From: an uncultured Anaerolineae bacterium
Lineage (GTDB): Bacteria > Chloroflexota > Anaerolineae > Fen-1058
Direction of reading: 5' to 3'
DNA length: 64,000 bases
Assembly (NCBI GenBank): GCA_964353405.1
Contig: CAYGWJ010000121.1
Span: 2,421 to 66,420 of the forward strand
The position numbers were made by a program, and so were the translations under genes. The notes beneath the pieces are model-generated. The model saw only the letters and a list, made by a program, of their open reading frames with translations, was not told where the DNA came from and did not search any database. This document shows positions 1 through 58,349 of this stretch, piece by piece (position 1 is the first letter of the stretch; each line of letters opens with the position of its first letter).

Positions 1-856
1 CTACCATCTCCATCACACTGCGTTGAGCGCCCGGATGCAAATGGGCTTCGGGTTCTTCAAAATAGACATCCAACGCAACAAGTGTTCCTGACTGGAGACC
101 CGCTTCTACGACTGCCCAAAAGGGCCATATTTCCATTTGCCCGGCGGCAATATTGACCGGACGCAAATGCGCCTTCTCTGTTTCAAGCACGATCGTGTCA
201 GGGCCATATTGAATTCGCCCCTTGAAGATAGATTGGATCTGCTGCTTCAGACGTAACAGAGAATCAACGTCAGAAAATTGGTTGACTTGAATTCCCTCCC
301 GCGCGAGCCTTTCCAATGCCTTCCCTAAAGTCTCATAAAACGTAATAATGTAGCCAGGCCATTGCTGTTCAGGACGAGCGCGAGAAACAAAGCGAAGAGC
401 AGAAGAGGGTGTAAGAAAAGAGTAAAGAGTGCGTCCCGCCGGTATGTACACCTGTGTCTTTGGAGAATCGCCACGTTCCTTCCGTTGTGACGTAGTTATC
501 CGCTTCTTCAATGCTCCGCTCAGCCTGACACCCTCTTGGGTCCATCGAATCTCCTGCTTGGATCCTTTGAATAGTTTGGCAGAACTCCAACACAACACGG
601 TACCTGGGTCAGCATACACGGAAGGCGCATTGCCTAACCACCATTCCAAGGCCGATAAAGCAATTGCGGCCGGCGTCTCGACGCTTGTTGGCACACTTAC
701 AAGGAGGTCTTCTATGCCACGCAAGAAATAGAGGGCTTGGGCTGCCAGAGATTTGCCAGTCGCTTGTGGCCCAACAAAAACTGTCAGGTCACTCAACTCG
801 ATGCTTGCCTCATGAACTGGACCGAAGCTACGGATCAGTAGCTGTTCTTTCATCAT
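1..856 (-). CDS. Partial (5' end) ABC/OLD-family AAA ATPase (AAA_15/AAA_21-like); it runs off the left edge and is absent from the ORF track because there is no stop in the window
   Basis: My translation of the minus strand from ATGATG at 856-851 reads MMKEQLLIRSFGPVHEASIELSDLTVFVGPQATGKSLAAQALYFL... It has a Walker A motif (GPQATGKS). The window sequence ends at ...VALDVYFEEPEAHLHPGAQRSVMEMV, which matches the D/E-EPE-x-HLHP signature typical of OLD/Gabija-type ABC ATPases. I saw no stop codon down to position 1. Confidence 0.55.
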   Translation of the reverse strand, partial: MMKEQLLIRSFGPVHEASIELSDLTVFVGPQATGKSLAAQALYFLRGIEDLLVSVPTSVETPAAIALSALEWWLGNAPSVYADPGTVLCWSSAKLFKGSKQEIRWTQEGVRLSGALKKRITTSQRKERGDSPKTQVYIPAGRTLYSFLTPSSALRFVSRARPEQQWPGYIITFYETLGKALERLAREGIQVNQFSDVDSLLRLKQQIQSIFKGRIQYGPDTIVLETEKAHLRPVNIAAGQMEIWPFWAVVEAGLQSGTLVALDVYFEEPEAHLHPGAQRSVMEMV

Positions 857-910
857 GCCCTCATTTCTATACTGGCAGACTGTCAGCGCTGTTGGATTCC
901 AGGGAGCGAA

Positions 911-1708
911 TTAACGCAATCCCAAAATAACTCCAAATCGTCCCGTCTTCTTTTCCACGCGATGAGAGAACCACTCGTCGGTGTAGCAGGCCGTGCAGAT
1001 GCCGCTGTCTTCTATCTCCTGGATGCCGGCCGCGTTCAGTTGTGACTTGACTGCGGCGATGAGGTCAAGGTAAAGTGCGCCATCGAGCTGCGGGACAAGA
1101 ATAGAAGCGCCTGTCGGACAGGCGCCGGCGACGCGCTGCGCCAGGTCAGGCCCAAACTGGTAACACTCGGCGCGAATGGCCGGGCCGATGCCCGCCCACA
1201 CATCCGTCGGACGGCTGCCGAACCCGTCGCGCATCGCGCGCACCGTCGCGCCAAGGATGCCCACCACAATGCCCGGCCAGCCCGCGTGAGCAATCGCCAT
1301 CACACCGCGCCGGGCATCGTGAAAGAGCACCGGCACGCAATCGGCAAAGCGCATCGAAAGAGCCAGCCCGGGCGTGGCCGACACCAGCGCATCCGTCTCT
1401 TGCAGAGCTGCTCCGGAATGCTGCGGCCCAACGAGGGCGACATGACAGCCGTGACTCAACCACGCGCTCACCGTCTGGCCTTGCACCAGGCTCAGCGCAT
1501 TCAACAAACGACGATTGTTCTCCGTCACCGCTTCAAGGCTGTCGCCCGTCGAGCGGCTGAGGTTGAGCGACGCCCACGGCGCAACGCTCACACCGCCCTG
1601 ACGCGTAAAGATTCCATGTGTCACATCGGTCCGCGCCGCTAAATGCTCAAACTGATAGAATGTCAAACCATCAACACAGATTCGCTGCACTCGGGCCTCA
1701 CTCGTCAA
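911..1708 (-). CDS. pgeF: Peptidoglycan editing factor PgeF (YfiH/DUF152 polyphenol-oxidase-like family)
   Basis: 265 aa. It carries the IAHAGWPG motif and a C-terminal GICTACYTDEWFSHR metal-binding signature characteristic of the YfiH family. Confidence 0.8.
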   Translation of the reverse strand: MTSEARVQRICVDGLTFYQFEHLAARTDVTHGIFTRQGGVSVAPWASLNLSRSTGDSLEAVTENNRRLLNALSLVQGQTVSAWLSHGCHVALVGPQHSGAALQETDALVSATPGLALSMRFADCVPVLFHDARRGVMAIAHAGWPGIVVGILGATVRAMRDGFGSRPTDVWAGIGPAIRAECYQFGPDLAQRVAGACPTGASILVPQLDGALYLDLIAAVKSQLNAAGIQEIEDSGICTACYTDEWFSHRVEKKTGRFGVILGLR

Positions 1709-1712
1709 CGGA

Positions 1713-2819
1713 TCAGGCGCCCACGTTCATGTCGCCCAACAGACCGCGCGCCATCGCCTCCTCCCACGTGAGGGTCTGAACGGAATCAGCCAGACCGGTG
1801 CCGGCGGCCAACATTTCCTCGCTGAACAACATGTCAAAATCGGCAGCGGGTTCTGGCCGGGTTACCGCCGGCTCAGGCTGAACGGAAGCCAGCTCGGGCC
1901 GAGGCTGAGGCAGAGTCGGCTGAGCCACGTGGGTCAAGACAACCGGTTCCACGGGCGCCACGGGCGCAACCCGCTGAACGGCTCGGGCGCCGATCTTTTC
2001 AATCTCGGCCACGGTTTTCTTGGCATACATCCACACTGCGCCTTGCTTGACCGACTTGGGCACGACGGCAACCAGGATCATCGTCGGACTGATTTCGGCT
2101 GCGTAAACGGCCACGCGCTGACCTTCCAGGTAGTGAAGCGGGAATGATTTCTCTTCGCCCAAGAGCGAAGCGACCTGCGCCGTCGTCGAGCGGCAATTCA
2201 ACACCAGCGCGCACAGCGACGGCAGGTTGCTGCCGTTCAACATTCCCTTAGACGAGATCACGCAGCCGGTCTCTTCGATGAGCAGCACCGATTCAGCTGT
2301 GGTCTGCGCGCGCAGTTCGGACAGCACCCCGTCCATGCGCTCCAGGTCTTTGGGGGAAAAGCTGAGGGATGGAGCTGAGCCGGCCGGGGCCGAGGTCGCA
2401 GAGAGCGGCGACGCAGCAGCGACGGTCACGGCCTGAATCTGTCTCGACCGCTTGAGCTCGCGCTCGGTCACTTGCAGCACCTGGTTGATGGAGAATGGCT
2501 TTTTGAGGTAATCGGCCACGCCGGCCCGCATGGCCTCGATGACGCTGTCCATGTCGCCAAAGCCGGTGAGCATGATTACGGGCAACAAGGGATTTTTCTC
2601 TTTGACCTTTTTGAGAAGCTGAATGCCACTCATGCCACTCATCTTGAGATCAGTAATGACAAGGTCCATCAGGGCGGTTTCCATGATCTGCATCGCCCGC
2701 TCGCCGCTGGGCGCGGTGCGCACCGCATAACCGGACGTGGTCAGCACATCACGCAGCGCCTTGCAGACCGCTTCCGAATCGTCCACGACCAGAATATTGG
2801 CCAAAGGCTCACCGGCCAT
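1713..2819 (-). CDS. Response regulator receiver protein with an uncharacterised C-terminal domain
   Basis: The N-terminal REC domain reads ILVVDDSEAVCKALRDVL...ITDLKMSGMSG...VIMLTGFGD, with the conserved Asp, Thr and Lys positions. The C-terminal ~240 aa contain no recognisable HTH. Confidence 0.7.
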   Translation of the reverse strand: MAGEPLANILVVDDSEAVCKALRDVLTTSGYAVRTAPSGERAMQIMETALMDLVITDLKMSGMSGIQLLKKVKEKNPLLPVIMLTGFGDMDSVIEAMRAGVADYLKKPFSINQVLQVTERELKRSRQIQAVTVAAASPLSATSAPAGSAPSLSFSPKDLERMDGVLSELRAQTTAESVLLIEETGCVISSKGMLNGSNLPSLCALVLNCRSTTAQVASLLGEEKSFPLHYLEGQRVAVYAAEISPTMILVAVVPKSVKQGAVWMYAKKTVAEIEKIGARAVQRVAPVAPVEPVVLTHVAQPTLPQPRPELASVQPEPAVTRPEPAADFDMLFSEEMLAAGTGLADSVQTLTWEEAMARGLLGDMNVGA

Positions 2820-2863
2820 CGCAACCTCCTAAGGGGTGTAGGATGAATGCAAACTGGCGCGTG

Positions 2864-3190
2864 CTACTCGCTTTCAGTTCCGCCACGGCAGATCGAACAA
2901 CGACACATCTTGCGGAGCAGGTCCCAGGGGTAAAGCCCAAAACTATGGCCGTCTTCCCAAACAAACTGGATAGCATAATTGCCGACATAATTCATGTCGC
3001 GCACTTCGATGCTCGGCATGGTCGTCACCTTGAGCGGGTCAGGCTTGGCGCGGTAAGCATTGCAATCGGCGCACGGGCAGGCCGCGCGCACGTCACCCAG
3101 CGCATACTCGCCGTGGTGTCCGTCAGGCCAGTCAATCACCAGCCGGCCCGCCTCACGTTCAAGCTTGACCGTGGGATAGCGGCGTTTCAT
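2864..3190 (-). CDS. DUF971 family protein (gamma-butyrobetaine hydroxylase-like N-terminal domain)
   Basis: 108 aa. The cysteine and histidine pattern (CPCADC ... CRCSIC) and the EVRDMNYVGNYAIQFVWEDGH region match DUF971. Confidence 0.6.
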   Translation of the reverse strand: MKRRYPTVKLEREAGRLVIDWPDGHHGEYALGDVRAACPCADCNAYRAKPDPLKVTTMPSIEVRDMNYVGNYAIQFVWEDGHSFGLYPWDLLRKMCRCSICRGGTESE

Positions 3191-3308
3191 AAATTCTCCT
3201 TTGGATCGCTGACGACTACATTATGCCCCAAGCTTGGACACAACGCAAATCTCTTCACAGACAACAAGCCGCCCACCCGGAGCGGCTTGACCAACAAGAA
3301 CATCACGG

Positions 3309-4028
3309 TTACTTTTGCGCCGGATGGCGCAGGCGCCCCTCGGCGGGCCCGGGCGGGACCAGCCGCTCGCTGGACTTTTCGCCAATCTCCGCAAAAGCGA
3401 CCTGAAGGTGCGGGAACACCAGCCACGCCGAGGCCCAGCCGAACGCCCCGCCCGTGATGGTGCGAAGCACCCAGGTGCTTTCACGCGGCACGCCGCCGGG
3501 GAACAGGCCCGGCACGATATAACTGACCAGCTGGCTACCGCCGTCCAGCGCCATCGGCAGGATGCCGATAAGGATATAGATCCAAAACGAAATAGGCCTG
3601 GCCCGTGAGCGAACCCATCCGAACGCCAGACCGCTCAGCAGCAATGTGCCATAGATCGCCAGGTCACGCTGGCATAGCGCCACTTTGTAGCCAACCTGCT
3701 CGTTGCCGTTGAACGGGCTGGGCCAGGGATAGAGCGGCAAGTTGTCCTGGCCCACTCGTTCTACCAGCTCCGGGAGCGAGTAGACCGCTTTGTCCCCGAA
3801 CAAAAAGTATGACCGCTGCGGCAGCTCGTGGCACAAGGCGCGATACGTTGAGTAAATGATTTGCGCCGCAAAGGGATGGCCCGCCTTTTCCAGCACCGGA
3901 GCCAGGAACGGCAGGCCGATATACACCGCCAGTGCGGCATTGATAACCGCCAACCAGTGCCTGGACAGCCACACCGAAAGACGATCCGCCGCCGCAGTCA
4001 CGCGGCTCGATCCGTTAATAGGCGGCAA
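3309..4028 (-). CDS. DUF2085 family membrane protein
   Basis: Multi-TM protein with a CHELPQRSYF motif, a variant of the CHQxPERSF motif of DUF2085. Confidence 0.55.
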   Translation of the reverse strand: MPPINGSSRVTAAADRLSVWLSRHWLAVINAALAVYIGLPFLAPVLEKAGHPFAAQIIYSTYRALCHELPQRSYFLFGDKAVYSLPELVERVGQDNLPLYPWPSPFNGNEQVGYKVALCQRDLAIYGTLLLSGLAFGWVRSRARPISFWIYILIGILPMALDGGSQLVSYIVPGLFPGGVPRESTWVLRTITGGAFGWASAWLVFPHLQVAFAEIGEKSSERLVPPGPAEGRLRHPAQK

Positions 4029-4254
4029 GTTGCTCTCCCAACGCGCGCCTCACATCGGCGCGCGTGATGGGCGCGCACAACACCTCGTGCCCATCCACCT
4101 CTATGACCGGGATGCGATAGCGATACTGCTCGAACAGCGCCGCATCAGCCGTGATGTCAGCCGATTGCCACGACACACCCACTTCCAAGAGCCAGCTCTC
4201 CGCCTCTTGGCACAGATGACAGCCCGGCCTGGTGTAAAGTACAATGTGCCTCAC
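4015..4254 (-). CDS. Glutaredoxin-like small redox protein (CxxC thioredoxin fold)
   Basis: The sequence VRHIVLYTRPGCHLCQEAESWLLE...YRIPVIEVDG fits the glutaredoxin/NrdH-like fold. The likely GTG start at 4254 overlaps the ccdA stop (GTGA), suggesting translational coupling. The ORF-track ATG at 4326 lies inside ccdA. Confidence 0.55.
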   Translation of the reverse strand: MRHIVLYTRPGCHLCQEAESWLLEVGVSWQSADITADAALFEQYRYRIPVIEVDGHEVLCAPITRADVRRALGEQLAAY

Positions 4255-5096
4255 AGAGACGCAACCTGGTTGACCGCGCGGCCGCCAAGATAGCCTATGT
4301 ACGCCGGGACGAGCGGCAGGACGCACGGCGAGAGGAACGACAGCAATCCCGCCAGGAACGCGACGAAAAACGTCGGCGTGATGGACGCGCCGCCCGTGGA
4401 CACATCCAGGAACAAGCCTCGACTAAGCGCCCACCGGCTAAAGGCCTGCAGCGAAGGCGCCCATGACGGAATCGTCAGTGTCCAGTTTGCGCCGAACCAT
4501 TCGCCCACTTGCGGCACGACGCGGGGCAGCGCATCCACGAGGAGCAACAGGCCGACGATGATCAGCAGCACCGCTGTGATCGTTTTGACCATGGGCATGT
4601 AGCGGCGCATCCGGCGCAGGAGCGCCGTCGCGCGATCCACTGCCAGACCTGTCAGTAGAAAGGGGATGCCCAGGCCAAGCGAATAGCCAACGAGCAGGAA
4701 CACTCCCCGCCCCACCGTCTGCTCGTTCAGCCCTAGCGTCAAGATCGCGCCGAGCGTCGGGCCAACGCAAGGCGTCCATCCGGCGGAAAAGAACACGCCC
4801 ATCAAGAACGATGAGACATAGCCCAGGTCGCGTCCGCTCGTACCTTGATAGCGCGTGTCATATTCCAGGAACGGGAGGTTGAGCACGCCCGCCGTCGCCA
4901 ATCCAAAGATCACAACGACGACGCCGCCGAGGAGGGCAAGCCAACTGCGCAAGTCGTACAACAGTTGACCGACCGCCGTCACCGCCGCACCCAGTGCGAC
5001 AAACACCGCCGAAAAGCCCAGCACGAACGCGACGGCGTGAGTGAAAGTGGCAAAGCGGGCCGTTGCCGGCGTTCGCGCTTGACCCGAGACCGTCAT
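4251..5096 (-). CDS. ccdA: Cytochrome c biogenesis thiol-disulfide transporter CcdA (DsbD transmembrane-domain family)
   Basis: 281 aa polytopic membrane protein containing ...FSAGWTPCVGPTLGAIL..., typical of CcdA. Confidence 0.8.
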   Translation of the reverse strand: MTVSGQARTPATARFATFTHAVAFVLGFSAVFVALGAAVTAVGQLLYDLRSWLALLGGVVVVIFGLATAGVLNLPFLEYDTRYQGTSGRDLGYVSSFLMGVFFSAGWTPCVGPTLGAILTLGLNEQTVGRGVFLLVGYSLGLGIPFLLTGLAVDRATALLRRMRRYMPMVKTITAVLLIIVGLLLLVDALPRVVPQVGEWFGANWTLTIPSWAPSLQAFSRWALSRGLFLDVSTGGASITPTFFVAFLAGLLSFLSPCVLPLVPAYIGYLGGRAVNQVASL

Positions 5097-5260
5097 CTCT
5101 CGTTATCCTTCTTGACCAGCGACTCGAGCGCCTCCAAGTCCTTCTCCAGGTTGCGCTGGCGCTGGCTCATGGTGAGAATGTAAAGGAACGTGCCTATCCA
5201 GAACACGCCGTAAGCGACCACCAAAAAGATGGCGTTCTTAAAGCCCATCAAGTCTGACAT
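5093..5260 (-). CDS. ccmD: Haem exporter protein CcmD (small single-TM protein)
   Basis: The sequence MSDLMGFKNAIFLVVAYGVFWIGTFLYIL... is a short single-TM protein positioned directly after ccmC. An AGGAGG Shine-Dalgarno lies upstream of the ATG at 5260. Confidence 0.7.
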   Translation of the reverse strand: MSDLMGFKNAIFLVVAYGVFWIGTFLYILTMSQRQRNLEKDLEALESLVKKDNER

Positions 5261-5326
5261 AGATTCCTCCTGACAAGTCACAGGTCGCAGGTCGCAGGTC
5301 ACATCGCCCGCGGCACACTCTACGGT

Positions 5327-6082
5327 CTATGCGACAAGTTCTTGCTGCAACCGCGCGACACGATCCGCCGTGTGTTCCAGTCGGATGCGCTGGCGCAGCA
5401 ACGTGATATAGACGACGGTGAACGCGATGACGCAAAACGTGAGCGTCATGCCCATCTTGGCCGAGCCAAGCCCGGTCTCGAACTGCATCTTGCCCTGTGC
5501 CGCGCTGCTGGCGGCTAACAGCGCCGGGTGAATCGTCCGCAGGAAAAAGACTGAGGCAAACGTCAGTGGGACGGTGACAAAGCTGACGATGCCATACACG
5601 GCCGAAAAACGCGCGCGCCGCTGCGGGTCGTCCATCGCGCCGCGCAACATGAGATAGGCCAGGTACACCAACCAGGTGATCGCCACCGTCGTCAGCCGCG
5701 CATCCCACGTCCACCAGGTGTTCCACACGGGCCGCGCCCATAGGCTGCCTGTCATCGCGCCCATCGTCAGGAACAGCGCACCCAATTCCACGGACGACAT
5801 GCCCACAATGTCCCACTTGCGGTCATTCGTCCGCAGGTACATCACCGAAGCGACCAGCGTGACAAAGAACGCCAAAAAGCCCACCCAGTCCACCGCCACG
5901 TGGAAGTAGAAAATGCGCTGGACTTCTTTCATCGTCAGTTCGGTCGGCGCCCACAGGAACACCAACACGAGCGACGTGACCACCAGCACGGCGCTGGCAA
6001 CGGCCAGTACGGTTCCGGTTGTATCCTTTGCCTGTTTCATGCTCCTCCTTCCTTCGACGTCACTCCTCCACGACGTACTCAA
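5327..6082 (-). CDS. ccmC: Haem exporter protein CcmC
   Basis: Carries the tryptophan-rich WWD motif (VWNTWWTWDARLTT), has 6 TM helices, and lies adjacent to ccmB and ccmA. Confidence 0.85.
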   Translation of the reverse strand: MSTSWRSDVEGRRSMKQAKDTTGTVLAVASAVLVVTSLVLVFLWAPTELTMKEVQRIFYFHVAVDWVGFLAFFVTLVASVMYLRTNDRKWDIVGMSSVELGALFLTMGAMTGSLWARPVWNTWWTWDARLTTVAITWLVYLAYLMLRGAMDDPQRRARFSAVYGIVSFVTVPLTFASVFFLRTIHPALLAASSAAQGKMQFETGLGSAKMGMTLTFCVIAFTVVYITLLRQRIRLEHTADRVARLQQELVA

Positions 6083-6734
6083 ACACCATGAACGACACTG
6101 CCACGAGAATCACGTCAAACACGATCAGCAAATTGAGCCACTGCTGCCACTCGGACACCGGCAGGCCCATCATCGCGCCGGACGTGGCCTTGACGGCGGC
6201 AATCAGTTCCGGCATCGCCACCGGGAACAGCAAAATGGGCAGCATCACCTCCCGAGCGCGCGTGTTGACCGCCATCGAGCTGAGCAGCGTGCCCACACCC
6301 GCAAAACCGAGCGTCCCCAGCACGACGACGAGGATCACCCAAGGCTGAACGAGCGGCACATTGAAAAACACTACAAACAGTGGCAGGACGATCACTTCGA
6401 CGATGAGCATGAACAACGCATTGCCCAACGCCTTGCCGAAAAAGATGGCGCTGCGATCCACCGGCGTCAATAGTAAACCATCCAGGCAGCCCTTGTCCAA
6501 CTCGACCGACAGCGAGCGATTCAGACCCAGCATTCCGGCAAAGACGATCGTCACCCATAGCGCGCCCGGCGTGGCTGTCTCGATAATGTTGCGCTCCGTC
6601 AGCTCCAACGCAAAGTTGAAAACGATGATGACCAGAATGCTGAACACGCCCATCGAGCTGAGCATCTCGCGCGTGCGGAGTTCAGCCGCGATGTCTTTGG
6701 CAATGATGGCGGCGACTTGTCTCAGATACGTCAT
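6060..6734 (-). CDS. ccmB: Haem exporter protein CcmB
   Basis: 224 aa, 6-TM ABC permease-like protein lying between ccmA and ccmC. Confidence 0.8.
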   Translation of the reverse strand: MTYLRQVAAIIAKDIAAELRTREMLSSMGVFSILVIIVFNFALELTERNIIETATPGALWVTIVFAGMLGLNRSLSVELDKGCLDGLLLTPVDRSAIFFGKALGNALFMLIVEVIVLPLFVVFFNVPLVQPWVILVVVLGTLGFAGVGTLLSSMAVNTRAREVMLPILLFPVAMPELIAAVKATSGAMMGLPVSEWQQWLNLLIVFDVILVAVSFMVFEYVVEE

Positions 6735-7426
6735 AGAGTGTGCTGACGATACGCTTGCAGAAACGCCGCGGTGTTCAACTCGCTTCGATTGGCCTCAAAC
6801 ACCACCCGGCCCTTGGCCAGAATCACCACGCGGTCGGCCACGGCCAGGCCACGCTCCAGGTCGTGCGTCGTCATGACGACGGTGCGCCCTTCGGTGCCGA
6901 CGCTGGACATGACCGCTTCCAGCCGTGCGGCGGCATCCTGGTCGAGACCCGTATACGGCTCGTCGAGCAGCATCAGTGACGGACGATGGAGCACAGCCCG
7001 TGCGATGGCGAGCCGTTGCTGCATTCCGCGCGATAAAGTCCGCACCGGGTCGCGGCGGCGCTGCGCCAGCCCGACCATCTCCAGCACCTCCGTGATGCGA
7101 GCGTCGAGGCCGGCCACGTCATACATGCGTCCATAAAAGCGCAAGTTCTCTTCGGCGGAAAGGTCGCCATACAGCAGCGTCTGATGGCTGACCAGGCCGA
7201 TGCTCCGGCGCGCATCCGCCGCGCCCTTGGGCAGCTCGTGCCCGGCGATCTTGACGTGACCCAATGTCGGGCGCGAGAGCGTCGCCAGGATGCGCAACAA
7301 CGTCGTCTTGCCCGCGCCGTTCGGACCGACGAGCGTGACGAACTGCCCCTCCGGCACGGACAGGTTCACACCGCGCAGCGCCGTGGTCGGTCCAAAGGAT
7401 TTGACGAGACTATTGACTTTTATCAC
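6731..7426 (-). CDS. ccmA: Cytochrome c biogenesis ABC transporter ATP-binding protein CcmA
   Basis: Walker A motif GPNGAGKTTLLRIL, ABC signature LSRGMQQRLAIA, and Walker B motif LMLLDEP. Confidence 0.85.
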   Translation of the reverse strand: MIKVNSLVKSFGPTTALRGVNLSVPEGQFVTLVGPNGAGKTTLLRILATLSRPTLGHVKIAGHELPKGAADARRSIGLVSHQTLLYGDLSAEENLRFYGRMYDVAGLDARITEVLEMVGLAQRRRDPVRTLSRGMQQRLAIARAVLHRPSLMLLDEPYTGLDQDAAARLEAVMSSVGTEGRTVVMTTHDLERGLAVADRVVILAKGRVVFEANRSELNTAAFLQAYRQHTL

Positions 7427-7489
7427 CAGCCGGTATCCATCAGACGAATGACCAGGGACAAGGGGCCTATACTCGTCCGTCGTCTTGCG

Positions 7490-9433
7490 TCATTCGGTCA
7501 TCAACTCTTGCAGTTCCGCCTTGAGTGTGGCACGCTGCTGGCGGTATTCCTTGTCCTGGATGCGGCCCGCTTCAAAGTCATCATCCAATTGGGCAATGGC
7601 GTCCAGCAATTCATCTTGTTCTGCTTCCACATCTTGTACTTCTTCTTCGACCCCTTCCGCTTGCCGACGTTGCCTCAACCAGACAAAGGCGACAATCGCC
7701 ACAGCCACCAGCAACAAAGCCGCGGCAACGATGAGAATAGGCGAAGCTGTCTGGCTGGTAGGGGCCGTCGTGCCAGACGCAGAAGCGCTCGGCGCGCCAC
7801 TGAGTTGAAGCGCAAGGCTCGCTCCGGCAGCCAGGTCGCTGCCGACAAAATTGACCATGTTGCCGCCCTGTGTGGGGCGCGTGCCTGACTCGGTCAACTG
7901 CGGGCTGGTCAGCTTGGCGCCACCTTCGGGCACCAAGACGTTGATACTTTTCACCGGATACGCCATGGGCACTTGCAGGTCAAGCTTTTTGGCATCGTAA
8001 GGCAAATCATACGAAACGAGAACCTGCGTCGTGCCGGCGCCGGGCGCAACCGCTTCCGTGTCCGCAAAGCCGTTATCCAGCGACTTGTAGCGTCCACCTA
8101 GTTCGCCATCCATAAAGCGGAGGCCTGTCGCGCCGGCAGGCAGTTGGAAGCGCGCTGAAAGCCCATCCGAGCCGATGTAGGCGCGGTCGCCTGTGTTGGA
8201 CACGACGTACACCACTCCAACGGTCGTGCTGCCCGGCGACACAAAATCAAAGAACATGTGCATCTGTGCGATGCTGATAGTGGCGGCATCCGCCGTCGTC
8301 TCGTAAACCGTGATCGGCGCCGTCAGCGTCAGGCCGCCGTGAGCAAACGACAGCGCCTCACTCGTATAGATCGCCTTCAGGTATTCAGCCTGGAGGCCAT
8401 ACATGATCGGCGTCGAGGCGTCGAGCTTGTCGAACACAAACTGGCCCTTTGCGTCTGCGGCAAGCGTACGCGTGAACATGAGGCTTGAGCCATCGGGCGA
8501 AAGCGCGTACAACGTCACCGGCAAATTGCCTGGCGGCTTGCCGCCCGGCGTGCCATTCACAAACGAACCCATGATAGTCGCTTCGCCTTTGGGCGCGGCG
8601 ATCTTGACCAAGTCCATCGAAAGCGAACGAACGTAATCGGCGGCAGCCTGCCGATCGGCCTGACTCACACCGGCCAAGCCCGGCATCGCACCCTTACCAT
8701 TCGCGATGGCGCGATGTACGGCATCGACGGCATCGAGATCAGACTGCGATTTGCTTACCATCTTGCTCGCATCCGAGATATCCGGCGTGGCCGTGTTGTC
8801 GGACTTGCCCGTCGCGCCGTGGCATGAGGCACATTTGTCCGTGTAAACGGCTTTGCCCCGGTCCAGTTGATCTTGCGGAATGGACAGCGTGTAGAGATAC
8901 GCCACCACATCCCAACGATCCTCCGCCGTGAGACTGGTGAAAGGCGGCATTCCCCTTTGGAGCCGGCCGTTCGAAATCACATTGAACCAATCGGTCGGTT
9001 TGACCGTGCGCACAAAAGCCACATCGGCCAGGTCTGGAAACTTGCCTCCCATGTTTGCGACGATCTGCTGGCTCTGAGGGCCATCGCCCTTGCCCGCTGC
9101 GCCGTGGCAGGCCAGGCAACGCGCTTCATATACGCCCTGCCCTCTTTGCGCGGCAGGCTGCCGTTGAGGGAGTGCCACCGGCACAGGTGCGCCGGCTGTC
9201 GGGATATCCACAGGCGGCAGCGTGCCCACGGGCTGTGCAGCGGCAGAGGTCGGTTGTGCTGCCCGCGTCGCGGCCGCGCCCGGCGGCGGAACGATCGGCG
9301 TGACGGGGCCTTGAGGCAACTCGCCGGCGGTGTTGCAGGACGAGAGAACAAAGAGCGCCACAAGAGCGAATACAACCAGGGTCAAACGCAGATTTTTCAA
9401 CGAGTTGCCTCCACGGTCAACGCTGCGCCGCAC
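7490..9433 (-). CDS. Membrane-anchored dihaem cytochrome c lipoprotein
   Basis: Built from two class-I cytochrome c domains, a ~350-aa beta-rich domain, one TM helix and a cytoplasmic coiled tail. The N-terminus has a lipobox (LSSC). Two CXXCH motifs (CLACHG, CASCHG) are each followed by a Met-containing GMPPF or GAMPGL segment. A TM helix (ILIVAAALLLVAVAIVAFVWL) precedes a tail reading LDDDFEAGRIQDKEYRQQRATL. Confidence 0.7.
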   Translation of the reverse strand: MRRSVDRGGNSLKNLRLTLVVFALVALFVLSSCNTAGELPQGPVTPIVPPPGAAATRAAQPTSAAAQPVGTLPPVDIPTAGAPVPVALPQRQPAAQRGQGVYEARCLACHGAAGKGDGPQSQQIVANMGGKFPDLADVAFVRTVKPTDWFNVISNGRLQRGMPPFTSLTAEDRWDVVAYLYTLSIPQDQLDRGKAVYTDKCASCHGATGKSDNTATPDISDASKMVSKSQSDLDAVDAVHRAIANGKGAMPGLAGVSQADRQAAADYVRSLSMDLVKIAAPKGEATIMGSFVNGTPGGKPPGNLPVTLYALSPDGSSLMFTRTLAADAKGQFVFDKLDASTPIMYGLQAEYLKAIYTSEALSFAHGGLTLTAPITVYETTADAATISIAQMHMFFDFVSPGSTTVGVVYVVSNTGDRAYIGSDGLSARFQLPAGATGLRFMDGELGGRYKSLDNGFADTEAVAPGAGTTQVLVSYDLPYDAKKLDLQVPMAYPVKSINVLVPEGGAKLTSPQLTESGTRPTQGGNMVNFVGSDLAAGASLALQLSGAPSASASGTTAPTSQTASPILIVAAALLLVAVAIVAFVWLRQRRQAEGVEEEVQDVEAEQDELLDAIAQLDDDFEAGRIQDKEYRQQRATLKAELQELMTE

Positions 9434-53553: not shown

Positions 53554-54626
53554 ACAAGCCCGCAGCTTTACTTGATTTGAGCTTGGACGAACTGCAGAAC
53601 CTGTTTCAATCCTGGGGCGAGCCGCCTTATCGCGCCAAACAAGTCTGGAGCAGGCTCTACCAAAAGCTGGCCGCGTCCTATGATGAGATGACAGAGCTTT
53701 CCAGAGCGCTGCGCGAAAAGCTGGCGCAAGAGACCGTCATCGGTCGGCTCACGCCGCGCGCCGAGCAGCGCTCGTCGGACGGGCAGACGCGCAAGCTTCT
53801 CTTTGTCCTGCCCGATGGCGCGCAGGTCGAGTCAGTGCTGATGAGTTACGAGCGCCGACGCACGACGTGCATCTCCACTCAAGCGGGTTGTGCGATGAAC
53901 TGCTCGTTTTGCGCCACAGGCCAGGGCGGCTTTCAACGCAACCTCACCTCTGGTGAGATCATCGAGCAGGTTCTCTTTTTCGCCCGCGAGCTTGCCATCT
54001 CCAATCCCCAATCTCCCATCTCCAATATCGTATTCATGGGTATGGGCGAGCCGTTCGCCAATTACGATCAGGTCGTGGCCGCCGTCCGCCGACTCAACGA
54101 CCCGCAAGGGTTCAACTTGGGCGCGCGGCGGATGACCGTGTCCACCGTGGGACTGGTGCAGGGTATCCGAAAGCTGGCGAGCGAAGACATCCAGATCAAC
54201 CTGGCCGTGTCGCTCCATGCGGCAACCGACGAGTTGCGCAATCAACTGGTGCCCATCAACAAGCGGTACCCACTGAGTGAAATCATGTCCGCCGTGCGCG
54301 AGTATATCGAACGGACACATCGTCGCGTGAGTTTTGAGTGGGCCCTCATCGAAGGAGTGAACGACACGCCGGAACAGGCCCACGCGCTGGCACAACTGAT
54401 CAAGGGAATGCTGTGTCACGTCAACCTGATTCCGCTCAACCCGACGAGCGGCTACCCCGGCGCGGCTTCGACGCGTGAGCGCATCGCGGCGTTTCGTTCC
54501 ATTCTAGAGTCGGCCAACATTCCCAACACGCTCCGCCTGCGGCGCGGGATAGATATTCAAGCGGGTTGCGGACAACTTCGGCAAAGGGTCAACTCACCAA
54601 TGAGAAACGGGTCAGTTAGCAAATGA
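53550..54626 (+). CDS. rlmN: 23S rRNA / tRNA m2A methyltransferase RlmN (radical SAM)
   Basis: CAMNCSFCATGQ radical-SAM cluster motif and conserved N- and C-terminal RlmN regions. The ATG at 53550 overlaps the upstream stop (ATGA); an in-frame ATG at 53532 is an alternative start. Confidence 0.85.
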   Translation: MNKPAALLDLSLDELQNLFQSWGEPPYRAKQVWSRLYQKLAASYDEMTELSRALREKLAQETVIGRLTPRAEQRSSDGQTRKLLFVLPDGAQVESVLMSYERRRTTCISTQAGCAMNCSFCATGQGGFQRNLTSGEIIEQVLFFARELAISNPQSPISNIVFMGMGEPFANYDQVVAAVRRLNDPQGFNLGARRMTVSTVGLVQGIRKLASEDIQINLAVSLHAATDELRNQLVPINKRYPLSEIMSAVREYIERTHRRVSFEWALIEGVNDTPEQAHALAQLIKGMLCHVNLIPLNPTSGYPGAASTRERIAAFRSILESANIPNTLRLRRGIDIQAGCGQLRQRVNSPMRNGSVSK

Positions 54627-54762
54627 TCTGGCTCACGTCGCCTTCGAGGTGAAAACGCCCAAAATACGGACGAAAAGAGGCCGATTTCACCTCTGAGGCC
54701 ATATGATCTAATGATCTAAAGAGTGGAATGGTATTTCCATAACAATACGCTAATTTTATATC

Positions 54763-54792
54763 TTGACAAATGATACTATATTTGGTACTATA
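54763..54792 (+). promoter_or_regulatory. Sigma70-like promoter for hicA, with flanking 8-bp direct repeats
   Basis: TTGACA (54763-54768), an 18-nt spacer, then TACTAT (54787-54792). TACTATAT occurs twice (54774-54781 and 54787-54794). Confidence 0.5.
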
Positions 54793-54815
54793 TATCATGA
54801 AGATGGCAGCATACA

Positions 54816-55070
54816 ATGAGCAAAAAAGAGAAGCTAGTCCAAAAAATCAGGAACAACCCTAAAATAGTCTCATTTGAGGATTTGGACAGCGTCCTTACTT
54901 GGTATGGTTTTGTCAAGCGTTCATCCAGCTCGGGAACCAGCCATGTTTACTACACATTGGGTGTCTATCAAATATCGGTTCCCTACAGACGCCCGCATGT
55001 CAAAGCGACCTATGTCAGACAAGTGTTGGACATCCTTGACCAGATTGATGAAGAACAAGAGTTGCTCTAG
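54816..55070 (+). CDS. hicA: HicA-family type II toxin (mRNA interferase, YcfA-like)
   Basis: 84 aa. ...GFVKRSSSSGTSHVYYTL...VPYRRPHVKATYVRQVLDIL matches the HicA GSH motif and C-terminal pattern. It lies directly upstream of a HicB homolog in a low-GC island. Confidence 0.6.
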   Translation: MSKKEKLVQKIRNNPKIVSFEDLDSVLTWYGFVKRSSSSGTSHVYYTLGVYQISVPYRRPHVKATYVRQVLDILDQIDEEQELL

Positions 55071-55110
55071 TCTGGTGGACTTGTTCGGCATACGCTGCTC
55101 GTAAAGGTGT

Positions 55111-55977
55111 TTGAAGATGATCGAACGAAAAGATCTCTATTATTATCTCTCTTTGCCTTACACGATTCAATTGATTCGGGAAGACGAAGAAACATGGTTT
55201 GCCCGTGTGGTCGAATTACCAGGTTGCATGACAGAGGGGGATTCGGCACAAGAAGCGGCCGAGATGATTCTCGATGCAATGACAGGCTGGATCGAAATCT
55301 CTTTGGAGGATGGGCGCGCCATTCCCGAACCCCGTCCTACTGAAGACTACAGCGGCAAATTTCTAGTGCGTCTGCCGCGCTCTTTGCATCGGGAATTGGT
55401 GCAGGCGGCTGAACGCGAGAGAGTCAGCCTGAATTCATTTGTTAACGCGTCTTTGGGACGAGCAGTGGGGCAGCCACCGACTCGCAAGCCAGAGAAAACA
55501 TCAGTCGGTGATGCCAGGCCGGCATGGCCGCGGTTGAGCGAGGCGGCGCGCAAAGCGATGTTGGATGCTGGCTGCGAGGTCGAAGCGCAAGAGATCAACG
55601 AACAACTCTTTGCAAACTGGGTAGAGCGAAATATTGAAGATGTGCAAGCGACTCTGGCGAGTGGGCATTTTCAAGATGCTGCCGCGCGCCTGGAACGACA
55701 TCTGATCGAGTTACAGACCGCGGGCGAGGCCAGCCCGCTGATGGGCGTGTTTTGCCGACTGCTATCCCTATTGCGTACTCAAGTTGAACAAAACGCGCAG
55801 TTGCGCATCAGTTTGGTGAACCAGGTTCTGAATCAAGATCAAATCATGGCGCGTGCTTATGCCCAGGTATCAACCACCTTGCCGGTGCAAGAGCCAAGAG
55901 AAGTAACATACTCGGCTTTTGGACACGAGTGGGCACAATCCATGGAAGACTCGCTCAAGAAATGGGGAGCGCGATAA
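55111..55977 (+). CDS. hicB: HicB-family antitoxin with a ~170-aa C-terminal extension
   Basis: N-terminal HicB/UPF0150 fold (YTIQLIREDEETWFARVVELPGCMTEGDSAQEAAEM). RHH motif GKFLVRLPRSLHRELVQAAERERVSLNSFV. The 170-aa tail has no recognisable domain. Confidence 0.65.
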   Translation: MKMIERKDLYYYLSLPYTIQLIREDEETWFARVVELPGCMTEGDSAQEAAEMILDAMTGWIEISLEDGRAIPEPRPTEDYSGKFLVRLPRSLHRELVQAAERERVSLNSFVNASLGRAVGQPPTRKPEKTSVGDARPAWPRLSEAARKAMLDAGCEVEAQEINEQLFANWVERNIEDVQATLASGHFQDAAARLERHLIELQTAGEASPLMGVFCRLLSLLRTQVEQNAQLRISLVNQVLNQDQIMARAYAQVSTTLPVQEPREVTYSAFGHEWAQSMEDSLKKWGAR

Positions 55978-57512
55978 TGGCCGATACACCCATTCCAGTT
56001 TCGGAAAGCTTGAAGCGCGTCAATGCGGCCCTCGCGTTGCGCGAGATTCCGGATTATCCTGCGGCGTTGGCGCAACTGGCGCTTTCGCTTCAGGCTGATC
56101 CCCGCAATGCCGTGGCGCAGTTGCTTTTGGGTCTGACCTATCAGGATTTGGGTCATCCCCAACTGGCTCAGGCCTGTTTTGCCCAGGCGCTTGAGCTAGA
56201 GCCTGACTCGGCTCAAATCCGGCAAGCGTATGGCCTGTTCCTAATTCGCCATGCAGAATACCAGGAGGCGATGGCGTTAACCACTTTCCTCTTTGAGCAT
56301 GACAAGCACGAATCGGCACTGATACAGAGATTCGCCTCCGCGTTTTGGGAGGCCGATCAAGTGGATGATGCTATTGATCTCTTGTGGCAAGGTCGTGAAC
56401 AATGGCCGCAAGATGCCGAAATCGCCAGGCGTCTCGCGCACTTTTTGGCAGAAGTTGAAAAAGTTGACGAAGCAATTGCAGTCTTGGAAAACATTGCGGA
56501 ATTATCGCCCAATGTTGATGGCTTGTTTGACTTGGCTTCCCTGTATGCGCAGAAAAAAGATTATGCCTCGGCCGTCAAGCCACTCCGGCGGGCAGGGCAA
56601 CTAGAACCAAACAATGTGCGACCTTGGTTGGAATTATCTGAGTGCTATTTCAATCTGGATGATTATGAGCAAGCGATTGCTGCAGCCGATCAAGCACTTC
56701 AGCGTGATCCCAACAACTTTGCTGGCTGGATGAGCAAGTGGGGAATACTAGCCTCGCTGTCCCAAGCTGATAAGAGTTACCTTGCGAGTCTGGATGAATC
56801 GCTAGAGAATGGAATCCACGCTCTAATGTCTGTTGCTGACAGGCAAAAAGCATTGTATCGGTACAGTCTGTATCGCTGGCTTGATTTTCGTGATCGCAAT
56901 GTCAACAGTTCTGCCGCTGATTTGGCTGCCGGAGCATGGATGACGCGACACTTTAAAGATTTTGACAATTTGGGGTTCTTTCCAACTTGTGAAGAGAACT
57001 GGCAACGGGCGAAAGACCTGCTCACATTGGTCAAGCAACATGGATTAGGCGATCCGGCAATTGCCGACGCCAATTTGGGGTACATCTATCTCCGCCAGCA
57101 AGAGTATGAACTGGCCCTGGAAGCATTGCGCGCTGCAATCCAGGAGGCTCACCAGGACTCGATGGCGCTCCTCCATGAAGCCGCGTGGATCAATGGCGAT
57201 TTTTCAAGGACTAAAGTCGAGCGGTTTCCACATCGCTTGACACCAATTCGGCTAGTTGCGCTGTCGAATCTGGCAACGGCCTACTGGCTCAGTGGTAAGC
57301 CTGAAGCGGCGTTTGAGACGATTCAAGAAGCGATTTCAAGTGTGCCCCAAGATAACATCGGTTATCGTGTTTCCGGTTGCTTGCGCCTAGCGCAGGGCGA
57401 GGTCGAACTAGCCCGCTCAGAGTGGGAAAAGGCATTCAACTTGGCTGAAGACGAACAAGAGGCCGCACTGATTGAAGGCTGGTTAGCCACCTTGCCGCCT
57501 GTCCAGAAATAA
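55977..57512 (+). CDS. TPR-repeat protein
   Basis: Multiple TPR-like helical repeats (AxxxYxxALELEP...). The ATG at 55977 overlaps the hicB stop (TAATG); the ORF-track start at 55929 is the alternative. GC content is lower than the window average. Confidence 0.65.
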   Translation: MADTPIPVSESLKRVNAALALREIPDYPAALAQLALSLQADPRNAVAQLLLGLTYQDLGHPQLAQACFAQALELEPDSAQIRQAYGLFLIRHAEYQEAMALTTFLFEHDKHESALIQRFASAFWEADQVDDAIDLLWQGREQWPQDAEIARRLAHFLAEVEKVDEAIAVLENIAELSPNVDGLFDLASLYAQKKDYASAVKPLRRAGQLEPNNVRPWLELSECYFNLDDYEQAIAAADQALQRDPNNFAGWMSKWGILASLSQADKSYLASLDESLENGIHALMSVADRQKALYRYSLYRWLDFRDRNVNSSAADLAAGAWMTRHFKDFDNLGFFPTCEENWQRAKDLLTLVKQHGLGDPAIADANLGYIYLRQQEYELALEALRAAIQEAHQDSMALLHEAAWINGDFSRTKVERFPHRLTPIRLVALSNLATAYWLSGKPEAAFETIQEAISSVPQDNIGYRVSGCLRLAQGEVELARSEWEKAFNLAEDEQEAALIEGWLATLPPVQK

Positions 57513-57671
57513 GAACAAGCTGAACTTGCGCCGTTTTTGTGTATGTAGTAACGGCGCTTTTGTTTGTGGGAGAACGGTTGTACTTCACCGAATACCTGCA
57601 CGAGTCTCCTAATCACAGAGTAACTGATTGACTGATTGCTGATACCAGTGTATTATCTAGCCGGTCAGAAC

Positions 57672-57705
57672 AAAAAAGCGCCAGCCCTCGGTCAAGAGCT
57701 GGCGC
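57672..57705 (-). terminator. Rho-independent terminator of rpmB
   Basis: On the minus strand, stem GCGCCAGC / GCTGGCGC with a 12-nt loop, followed by TTTTTT. Confidence 0.7.
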
Positions 57706-57723
57706 GCGGACGCAAAAACCGGA

Positions 57724-57909
57724 TTATTTACTGACTTTGGTCAGCGTCTTGAGGCAAGACGTGCAAACGTAAACCTGGCGCGGCTGGCCCTCAACGTAGA
57801 GGGTGTGCTTTTGGATATTCGGCTTGAACATCCGATTGGTCGCGCGTTTGGAATGGCTCACGTTATGCCCAAAAGAGGGGCCTTTGCCGCAAATTTCACA
57901 CTTGGCCAT
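57724..57909 (-). CDS. rpmB: 50S ribosomal protein L28
   Basis: [34 protein letters not shown]... Confidence 0.9.
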
Positions 57910-57992
57910 TGCTGTTCACCTTCCTTTGATTTCATTAGAGCGGCAAGATGATACCACGAGAGCCGATTTGATGCAAACCGTACGAGGTTCCC

Positions 57993-58349
57993 ATGTCTGA
58001 AGAAACCCAACTGGGCAAAATCGAAATCTCGCCCACGGCGATTGCCACACTCGCCGCGCAGGCTGTCCTGCAATCCTACGGCGTGGTGGGCATGGCGCCC
58101 AAGCATCTAGGCGACGAACTGATGACGGCGCTGGGCGACGCGGCCCATCGCGGAGTACAGGTTCGAGTGGATGGCGACCATATTCAGATTGACCTGTACG
58201 TCGTCGTCGAGTACGGCACGCGCATCTCGTCGGTGGCCCACAGCATCATGAACGTCGTCAGGTACAACGTCGAGCGGGCGCTGGGAGTGCAAGTCGCGCA
58301 AGTGAACGTCCACGTGCAAGGTTTGCGCGTGAGCAATCCCGATGTTTAG
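57993..58349 (+). CDS. Asp23/Gls24-family stress protein
   Basis: 118 aa with the Asp23-family sequence pattern (GKIEISPTAIATLAAQAVLQSYGVVGM). Confidence 0.8.
   Translation: MSEETQLGKIEISPTAIATLAAQAVLQSYGVVGMAPKHLGDELMTALGDAAHRGVQVRVDGDHIQIDLYVVVEYGTRISSVAHSIMNVVRYNVERALGVQVAQVNVHVQGLRVSNPDV

Follow-up and report, generated by a model that had tools for sequence, protein, structure and literature searches.

The left edge of the 64,000-nucleotide stretch analysed here (the window), from contig CAYGWJ010000121.1 of an uncultured Anaerolineae bacterium, cuts through a gene on the minus strand. Positions 853 to 1 were confirmed to encode the first 284 codons of a 387-residue ATP-binding cassette (ABC) ATPase of the OLD/SMC clade. 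Together with a small gene directly downstream that encodes a predicted nuclease, this gene forms a cassette that is probably a horizontally acquired two-component anti-phage system, by analogy with the class in which an ATPase serves as sensor and a restriction-endonuclease-fold (REase) protein serves as effector (WonAB, PD-T4-4, PDC-M29). Direct observation covers the pair of genes, how far it is conserved, the motifs, the insertion and the links to known families. Members of the ATPase and REase-fold class have been validated recently (PD-T4-4 in 2022, WonAB in 2025), and the cassette adds to it a well-delimited example with a matching empty site. It is a currently unannotated addition to a known two-gene defence class and introduces no new principle.

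The ATPase and its downstream partner

The preliminary description, made from the sequence alone, had proposed an unlisted partial gene at the left edge of the window, and this gene proved to be real. Its frame lies on the minus strand and is open down to position 1. It was missing from the list of open reading frames (ORFs) because it runs off the end of the window without an internal stop codon, as had been supposed, and the remaining 103 codons lie past the left edge. The chance of a stop-free frame of 284 codons at ~51% guanine-plus-cytosine (GC) content is roughly 1e-6. A protein search returned P0001, a 387-residue protein from public metagenomes that is 100% identical across all 285 translated residues of the window ORF. 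Two adjacent candidate ATG codons are present at 856-854 and 853-851, the second of which is used in P0001, and the ribosome-binding site is GAGGG at 862-858. This site lies in the spacer between the ATPase gene and pgeF, which also contains an imperfect palindrome (872-886).

Comparison with the two Pfam families suggested in the preliminary description gave matches above the gathering scores for both the window fragment (AAA_15, 46.6 bits with a cut-off of 32.1; AAA_21, 32.7 bits with a cut-off of 27) and the full-length protein (60.6 and 52.2 bits respectively). These were the only Pfam domains found in the 387 residues, with no TOPRIM or other nuclease domain. The Walker A sequence GPQATGKS and the sequence EEPEAHLHP near the window boundary, both noted earlier, were located at the positions given in Table 1. 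An alignment of 26 homologues, 39-71% identical, revealed that the Walker A residues G28, G33, K34 and S35 are invariant, together with Q39, a P138-x-G140-R141 motif, the signature-like G238-Q239, the E267-P-E-x-H-L-H-P sequence and the H-loop T298-H299-S-P-Y, which lies outside the window and was read in P0001. Residues ~305-387 form a C-terminal extension, and the protein has the fold of an ABC/SMC head, with likeness to the heads of SMC and Rad50.

The best PADLOC matches of the window fragment were the A-components PDC-M56A, AriA and NsnB, and the full-length ATPase matched PDC-M56A best (81.5 bits), with PD-T4-4_A at 70.9 bits and PDC-M29A at 59 bits. In NCBIfam the fragment gave recN alone (14.9 bits with a cut-off of 408), and no family came near its cut-off with the full-length ATPase (recN 16.6 bits, transporter ATPases 11-14 bits). 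The earlier assignment to an OLD/ABC-type ATPase of the anti-phage kind is supported by the Pfam matches, the invariant ABC motifs, the PADLOC matches to A-components and the partner gene. The subfamily of the ATPase is chromosomal and mostly from Chloroflexota, plus one Polyangia genome. Scans of genome and metagenome contigs with patterns from the alignment (EPEAHLHP and THSPY, both generic) returned near-exclusively distant ATPases, the Polyangia locus L002 being the sole close relative among the matches listed.

Table 1. Features of the truncated ATPase gene and of the spacer upstream of it.
Feature	Window position	Strand	Basis or remark
OLD-type ABC ATPase gene, 5' part (codons 1-284 of 387)	1..853	-	Translation; Pfam AAA_15 and AAA_21; 100% identity to P0001
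Walker A (P-loop) GPQATGKS, residues 28-35, including invariant K34	749..772	-	Sequence reading; G28, G33, K34 and S35 invariant in 26 homologues
ABC-signature-like motif AAGQME, residues 236-241, with invariant G238 and Q239	131..148	-	Alignment; signature role suggested by position in the ABC fold
Walker B and D-loop EEPEAHLHP, residues 266-274, including catalytic Glu267	32..58	-	Sequence reading; E267, P268, E269, H271, L272, H273 and P274 invariant
54-nt spacer from the pgeF stop codon (913-911) to the ATPase start	857..910	-	Upstream end of the inserted segment

Any nuclease or partner gene had been expected beyond the window, and leftward extension through two near-identical strains recovered one. 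L001, a 10-kb contig, is 98.8% identical to positions 1-7158 of the window in reverse complement (about 7.1 kb), and contig L174 is 99.73% identical to positions 1-2565 and extends 909 bp further. Both carry the remainder of the ATPase gene, followed directly by an ORF of 171 residues whose start and the ATPase stop codon share a 4-bp overlap (ATGA). The gene order pgeF (Cu-oxidase_4), ATPase, 171-residue ORF, yggS, yggT, DUF167 was found in five independent samples.

A word-indexed search with this partner protein gave 51 relatives, all of ~170 residues and none with a Pfam domain. Residues C16, F30, D46, W49, D59, F62, E77, L78, K79, G80, A86 and Q89 were invariant in 33 relatives. An exhaustive profile search returned 976 cluster representatives (50% identity) at E<=1e-3, and the best 150 of these were all small proteins of about 80-230 residues. 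Across 49 sequences of this superfamily, 20-50% identical, exactly four residues stay invariant: D59, E77, K79 and Q89. In the AlphaFold2 model of the partner (predicted local distance difference test, pLDDT, 83.6; predicted template modelling score, pTM, 0.84), D59 opens strand beta2 (60-65), E77-x-K79 closes beta3 (71-77) and Q89 is placed in the next helix, an arrangement that in the model is the canonical PD-(D/E)xK layout. The best structural match of the model was the FokI cleavage domain. A Foldseek search of the PDB gave no significant match, comparison of the partner profile with PDB sequences was insignificant, and no HNH match, His-Me motif, or AriB or PtuB match was found. The partner is most likely a small PD-(D/E)xK (restriction-endonuclease-fold) protein and a predicted nuclease, in which the conserved motif sits on the modelled fold as in effectors of the ATPase and REase class. 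Although the effector family has about 976 cluster representatives and four invariant residues of catalytic type, Pfam and NCBIfam contain no model for it and PADLOC none that matches directly, and current defence-annotation tools would therefore show a lone 'AAA family ATPase'. The alignments obtained could seed a hidden Markov model for the effector family.

The partner lies directly after the ATPase gene in every homologous locus fetched (L162-L169, L180, L181 and the Polyangia L002), being cut by the contig end in L166. The 4-bp overlap recurs in L001, L164, L165, L166, L167, L169, L180 and L002, and many relatives of the partner sit on contigs equal in length to ones that yielded ATPase matches. 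The pairing was measured by comparing the profile of the partner superfamily with all ORFs of all collected loci, including loci with distant ATPases. This gave 43 matches, all on the strand of the ATPase and all immediately downstream of it save one extra upstream ORF in L035; 29 of the loci hold only distantly related ATPases, among them Poribacteria, Caldilineaceae, Nitrospirales, Dehalococcoidia and Rhodothermales. In IMG/VR viral contigs the partner was found immediately downstream and on the same strand in 46 of the 80 loci with a related ATPase. The ATPase and partner are a conserved unit on chromosomes and (pro)phage contigs, the two genes are translationally coupled and co-inherited, and a stand-alone OLD-type ABC ATPase gene followed by a small nuclease-like gene is the operon arrangement of the ATPase and REase class.

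Several loci deviate in detail. In the Poribacteria locus L035, partner-superfamily ORFs (5183-5752 and 7328-7915) flank the ATPase and may represent a duplicated effector or two adjacent systems. Public gene calls in L162 (6176-6691) and L163 (4408-4923) shorten the partner to 127 and 119 residues; the real ORF (MSAPQWL...) begins within the ATPase stop region, as at the other loci, and the partner family is therefore under-called in database annotation. One protein of 232 residues, P0118, was returned with the ATPase profile and again with the partner profile (residues 146-225), and is an apparent fusion or frameshifted fragment of the two genes.

Insertion of the cassette between pgeF and yggS

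In a Chloroflexota chromosome the cassette takes up ~1.75 kb between pgeF (ylmD) and yggS (ylmE), both of them housekeeping genes. The empty site is represented by two relatives, L178 and L179, in both of which pgeF and yggS are 6 bp apart; their YggS proteins are 83% and 76% identical to that of L001 and the flanks share 82-90% nucleotide identity. An 8-gene synteny is common to L001, L178 and L179 and covers the cytochrome c biogenesis genes, DsbD, a glutaredoxin-like gene, DUF2085, a response regulator, pgeF, yggS and yggT. The breakpoints of this synteny delimit a segment of ~1.75 kb in L001 (about 6240-7990) with only two genes inside. In window coordinates the inserted segment runs leftwards from 910, and the break with L178 and L179 falls at the end of pgeF. 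With a GC content of 0.52 the pair falls in the lowest 3% of same-size windows, the value for the whole window being 0.60, and in each of the seven other loci tested the pair lies 6-14 points under its flanks. The genomic contexts of the homologues all differ. The cassette is an accessory and horizontally acquired segment. A more distant relative, L180, carries it at the same site, with flanking proteins ~75%, the ATPase 71% and the partner 75% identical; either the insertion is old and the lineages of L178 and L179 have lost it, or the same site was entered on two occasions.

A promoter and terminator scan around the cassette gave background levels with no consensus found. Rfam (gathering score) and tRNA scans of the 64-kb window were empty, and there is therefore no tRNA-linked integration site. 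The palindrome in the spacer (ctggcag-a-ctgtcag) was considered as a regulatory element and rejected, being imperfect in the window and unconserved upstream of homologous ATPases; it is perfect in L001 and is probably no shared operator. At the opposite end of the cassette, beyond the left edge of the window (L001 7959-7990), the partner gene of cassette-bearing genomes extends at its 3' end 14 nt past the called start of yggS. The first ~10 residues of YggS in these genomes differ from those in the empty-site relatives (L178 5001, L179 5001), and the 5' end of yggS therefore appears to have been remodelled by the insertion. Two unrelated metagenomic contigs have Wadjet genes directly beside the pair, jetA/B/C in L164 (1-4704) and jetD/jetC in L167 (6731-11215); in L167 a PIN-MazE pair and an N6/N4 DNA methyltransferase are further neighbours.

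Relation to known defence systems and rival explanations

WonAB, from the WASA-1 prophage of Vibrio cholerae, combines an OLD-type ABC ATPase with a variant PD-(D/E)xK nuclease (Adams et al., Nat Microbiol 2025, PMC12137116). Protection requires both genes and both active sites, WonB is toxic only alongside active WonA and is degraded by Lon, and activation halts translation with genomic DNA intact (PMC12137116). Its homologues are reported mainly in Gram-negative bacteria and the phenotype is abortive infection by translation shut-off (PMC12137116); the authors tie the system to PD-T4-4 and to the 'OLD-ABC ATPase + novel REase' operon of the Krishnan et al. 2020 survey, which 0.96% of genomes contain (PMC12137116). 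WonAB (WonA AWB73975.1, WonB AWB73976.1) was compared with the cassette through its published description and not by sequence. Both consist of accessory or mobile genes, with the ATPase gene first and a small nuclease gene second. Both ATPases are stand-alone OLD-type proteins with the Walker A lysine at position 34, a C-terminal extension and ~32-33 residues between the Walker B glutamate and the H-loop histidine, and both nucleases are small with a variant PD-(D/E)xK motif. However, the WonA catalytic residues R182, E300 and H333 imply ~33 more residues before Walker B than in the present ATPase, and WonAB is found on a prophage and mainly in Gram-negative hosts, whereas the subfamily described here is chromosomal and mostly from Chloroflexota, with Polyangia in addition.

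PD-T4-4 of Escherichia coli has the same two-gene architecture as the cassette (Vassallo et al. 2022, PMC9519451) and came out of a selection in E. coli for activity against T4 (PMC9519451). The PD-T4-4_B protein has been assigned to PD-(D/E)xK, and the system has been placed among the complex-forming PD-(D/E)xK nuclease-NTPase systems (10.1101/2025.07.10.664194). PD-T4-4_A is longer (~460 residues, with larger inserts, compared to 387), the ExK motif is DLK in PD-T4-4_B and ELK in the partner, and PD-T4-4 is found on integrative and conjugative elements or plasmids of Enterobacteria, whereas the cassette is chromosomal. Alignment of the ATPase profile with PD-T4-4_A by hhalign gave a probability of 98% (E 2.5e-13), spanning Walker B, the H-loop and the C-terminal extension. 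Measured against the bona fide reference on the E. coli plasmid pSCU-105-5 (A 410 bits, B 147 bits), the cassette fell short of membership, the ATPase scoring 70.9 bits and the partner giving no match at E<=1. As far as these profiles indicate, the relation to PD-T4-4 is one of remote homology only. A gut phage-like contig, MT836320.1, encodes an ATPase of 444 residues and a partner of 140 residues that gave 99.7% (E 7e-26) and 88.5% (E 2.7e-6) respectively in profile-profile comparison.

Distant members of the partner superfamily match PDC-M29B (13 of 49), PD-T4-4_B, PDC-M47B and HEC-02B, which constitutes a family link since the ATPase matches the corresponding A-components. In L002 and L169, the two family members that are most distant, the partner gave a weak PDC-M29B match, and the relatives on viral contigs are PDC-M29-like. 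Comparison of the partner superfamily with HEC-02B by hhalign was not significant; the bona fide HEC-02 reference lies on a Comamonas plasmid. PDC-M29, PDC-M56, PDC-M47 and HEC-02 are computational PADLOC candidates, to which the ATPase scores far under member level, and the partner of the type found here matches no PADLOC B model at E<=1. In Vibrio phage 1.202.O, which is P2-like (L173, NC_048066.1 4187-6218), a 469-residue AAA family ATPase and a 209-residue hypothetical gene lie between repressor and integrase, the classical P2 defence hotspot; this ATPase matches the query over residues 266-358 only.

By analogy with WonAB, the ATPase would dimerise head-to-head around two ATP molecules and the nuclease would dock onto the C-terminal extension (residues ~305-387). 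By further analogy with PD-T4-4, the dimer may sense infection, and the nuclease may be licensed by ATP binding or hydrolysis combined with a cue from the phage, so that the infected cell or the invading nucleic acid would be disabled by abortive infection or direct cleavage. Candidate substrates are DNA or tRNA/rRNA; the FokI-like fold of the model suggests DNA, and the WonAB phenotype suggests RNA by analogy.

Several observations weigh against an ATPase-sensor and REase-effector defence system. In the PADLOC run proposed earlier, the ATPase did match A-components, but at 59-82 bits, far under the 144-528 bits of true members, and the partner (P0121) has no Pfam, NCBIfam or PADLOC match even at E<=1. 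The partner superfamily aligned with PD-T4-4_B by hhalign at a probability of 16% (E 1.5e-3) with D..(D/E)LK..Q in register, and on these alignments the link of the partner to PD-T4-4_B is transitive only. No integrase, repeat or att site was found at the insertion boundaries, defence-island neighbours occur in only 2 of about 8 contexts, and the partner gene in the window's own genome is taken from strains 98.8-99.7% identical.

It is doubtful, though conceivable, that the Chloroflexota subfamily is a distinct, uncatalogued defence family whose effector escapes Pfam, NCBIfam and PADLOC v2 and is an ATP-gated, dimerisation-dependent cutter of invading DNA resembling the FokI cleavage domain, or else a cassette homing into the pgeF/yggS junction; as a distinct family it may cut DNA instead of shutting off translation in the manner of WonAB. 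The homing alternative arises because the cassette recurs at the same site without an integrase. As a selfish site-specific element, its nuclease and ATPase would cut the empty junction and spread by repair-mediated copying like a homing endonuclease, which would account for the same insertion site in diverged lineages. L001 and the more distant L180 have the site filled, L178 and L179, which are intermediate, have it empty, and the precise boundaries, lack of mobility genes and structural match to the FokI cleavage domain agree with such a cycle. The divergence of the cassettes of L001 and L180 (ATPase 71%, partner 75%) nevertheless equals that of their flanks (~75%), which fits old vertical inheritance and loss, and other family members occupy entirely different sites. 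We know of no homing element of ATPase and REase architecture, and this selfish reading is very improbable.

A toxin-antitoxin (TA) or addiction module, in which the nuclease is the toxin, the ATPase neutralises it and the selfish cassette has no dedicated anti-phage role, is unlikely. The overlapping two-gene operon, low GC content, patchy presence and absence and lack of mobility genes would all suit such a module, Pfam labels AAA_21 'putative AbiEii toxin, Type IV TA system', and overproduction of WonB is toxic (PMC12137116). However, WonB is toxic only with active ATPase, contrary to simple sequestration (PMC12137116), and protection against phage is established for the relatives PD-T4-4 and WonAB. 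A TA role and a role in abortive infection do not exclude each other.

A housekeeping role, as an RecF/RecN/SMC-like ATPase or a transporter subunit of the cell-division-associated pgeF-yggS-yggT cluster, was the match named in the preliminary description as contradicting its assignment, and no such match was found. The position between housekeeping genes on the same strand, the fold resembling SMC and Rad50 heads and the occupied site in L180, where the flanking genes are ~75% identical, are compatible with this role. The NCBIfam families are nowhere near their cut-offs, there is neither a coiled-coil insertion nor a membrane partner, and the pair has an anomalous GC content. It is absent from L178 and L179, which are closer relatives and have only 6 bp between pgeF and yggS, and homologues occur in unrelated contexts. 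A housekeeping function is therefore exceedingly improbable, being excluded by the empty sites and variable contexts.

Membership of the OLD, Gabija, PARIS or Septu systems, whose ATPases resemble the present one in the motifs given above, is likewise extremely unlikely. OLD and GajA carry a C-terminally fused TOPRIM nuclease in proteins of about 530-650 residues, AriB is a DUF4435/TOPRIM protein and PtuB, the effector of Septu PtuA and of retron-associated PtuA-like ATPases, is an HNH protein, whereas here the effector is a separate small protein modelled with a PD-(D/E)xK fold and the TOPRIM and HNH features are missing. OLD and Gabija GajA were rejected as the ATPase has 387 residues without TOPRIM and its matches to the GajA and Old models are restricted to residues ~258-307. 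PARIS (AriA/AriB) was set aside on the PD-(D/E)xK-like model of the partner, which has no PADLOC or Pfam match, and Septu (PtuA/PtuB) on the lack of an HNH match or His-Me motif in the partner and an NCBIfam PtuA score of 13 bits with a cut-off of 500.

Other features of the window

The neighbourhood of the cassette contains a cytochrome c biogenesis cluster (CcmA/B/C-like, DsbD_TM) and a 647-residue protein of multi-haem type at 7490-9433. The response regulator at 1713-2819 (minus strand) has a long C-terminal extension without a domain match. A second stretch of low GC content (0.47-0.53 compared to 0.60) lies at 54500-58000, where two ORFs on the plus strand encode a HicB-like antitoxin (55111-55977) and then a 527-residue TPR protein (55929-57512); this stretch may likewise have been acquired, or may represent a TA module.
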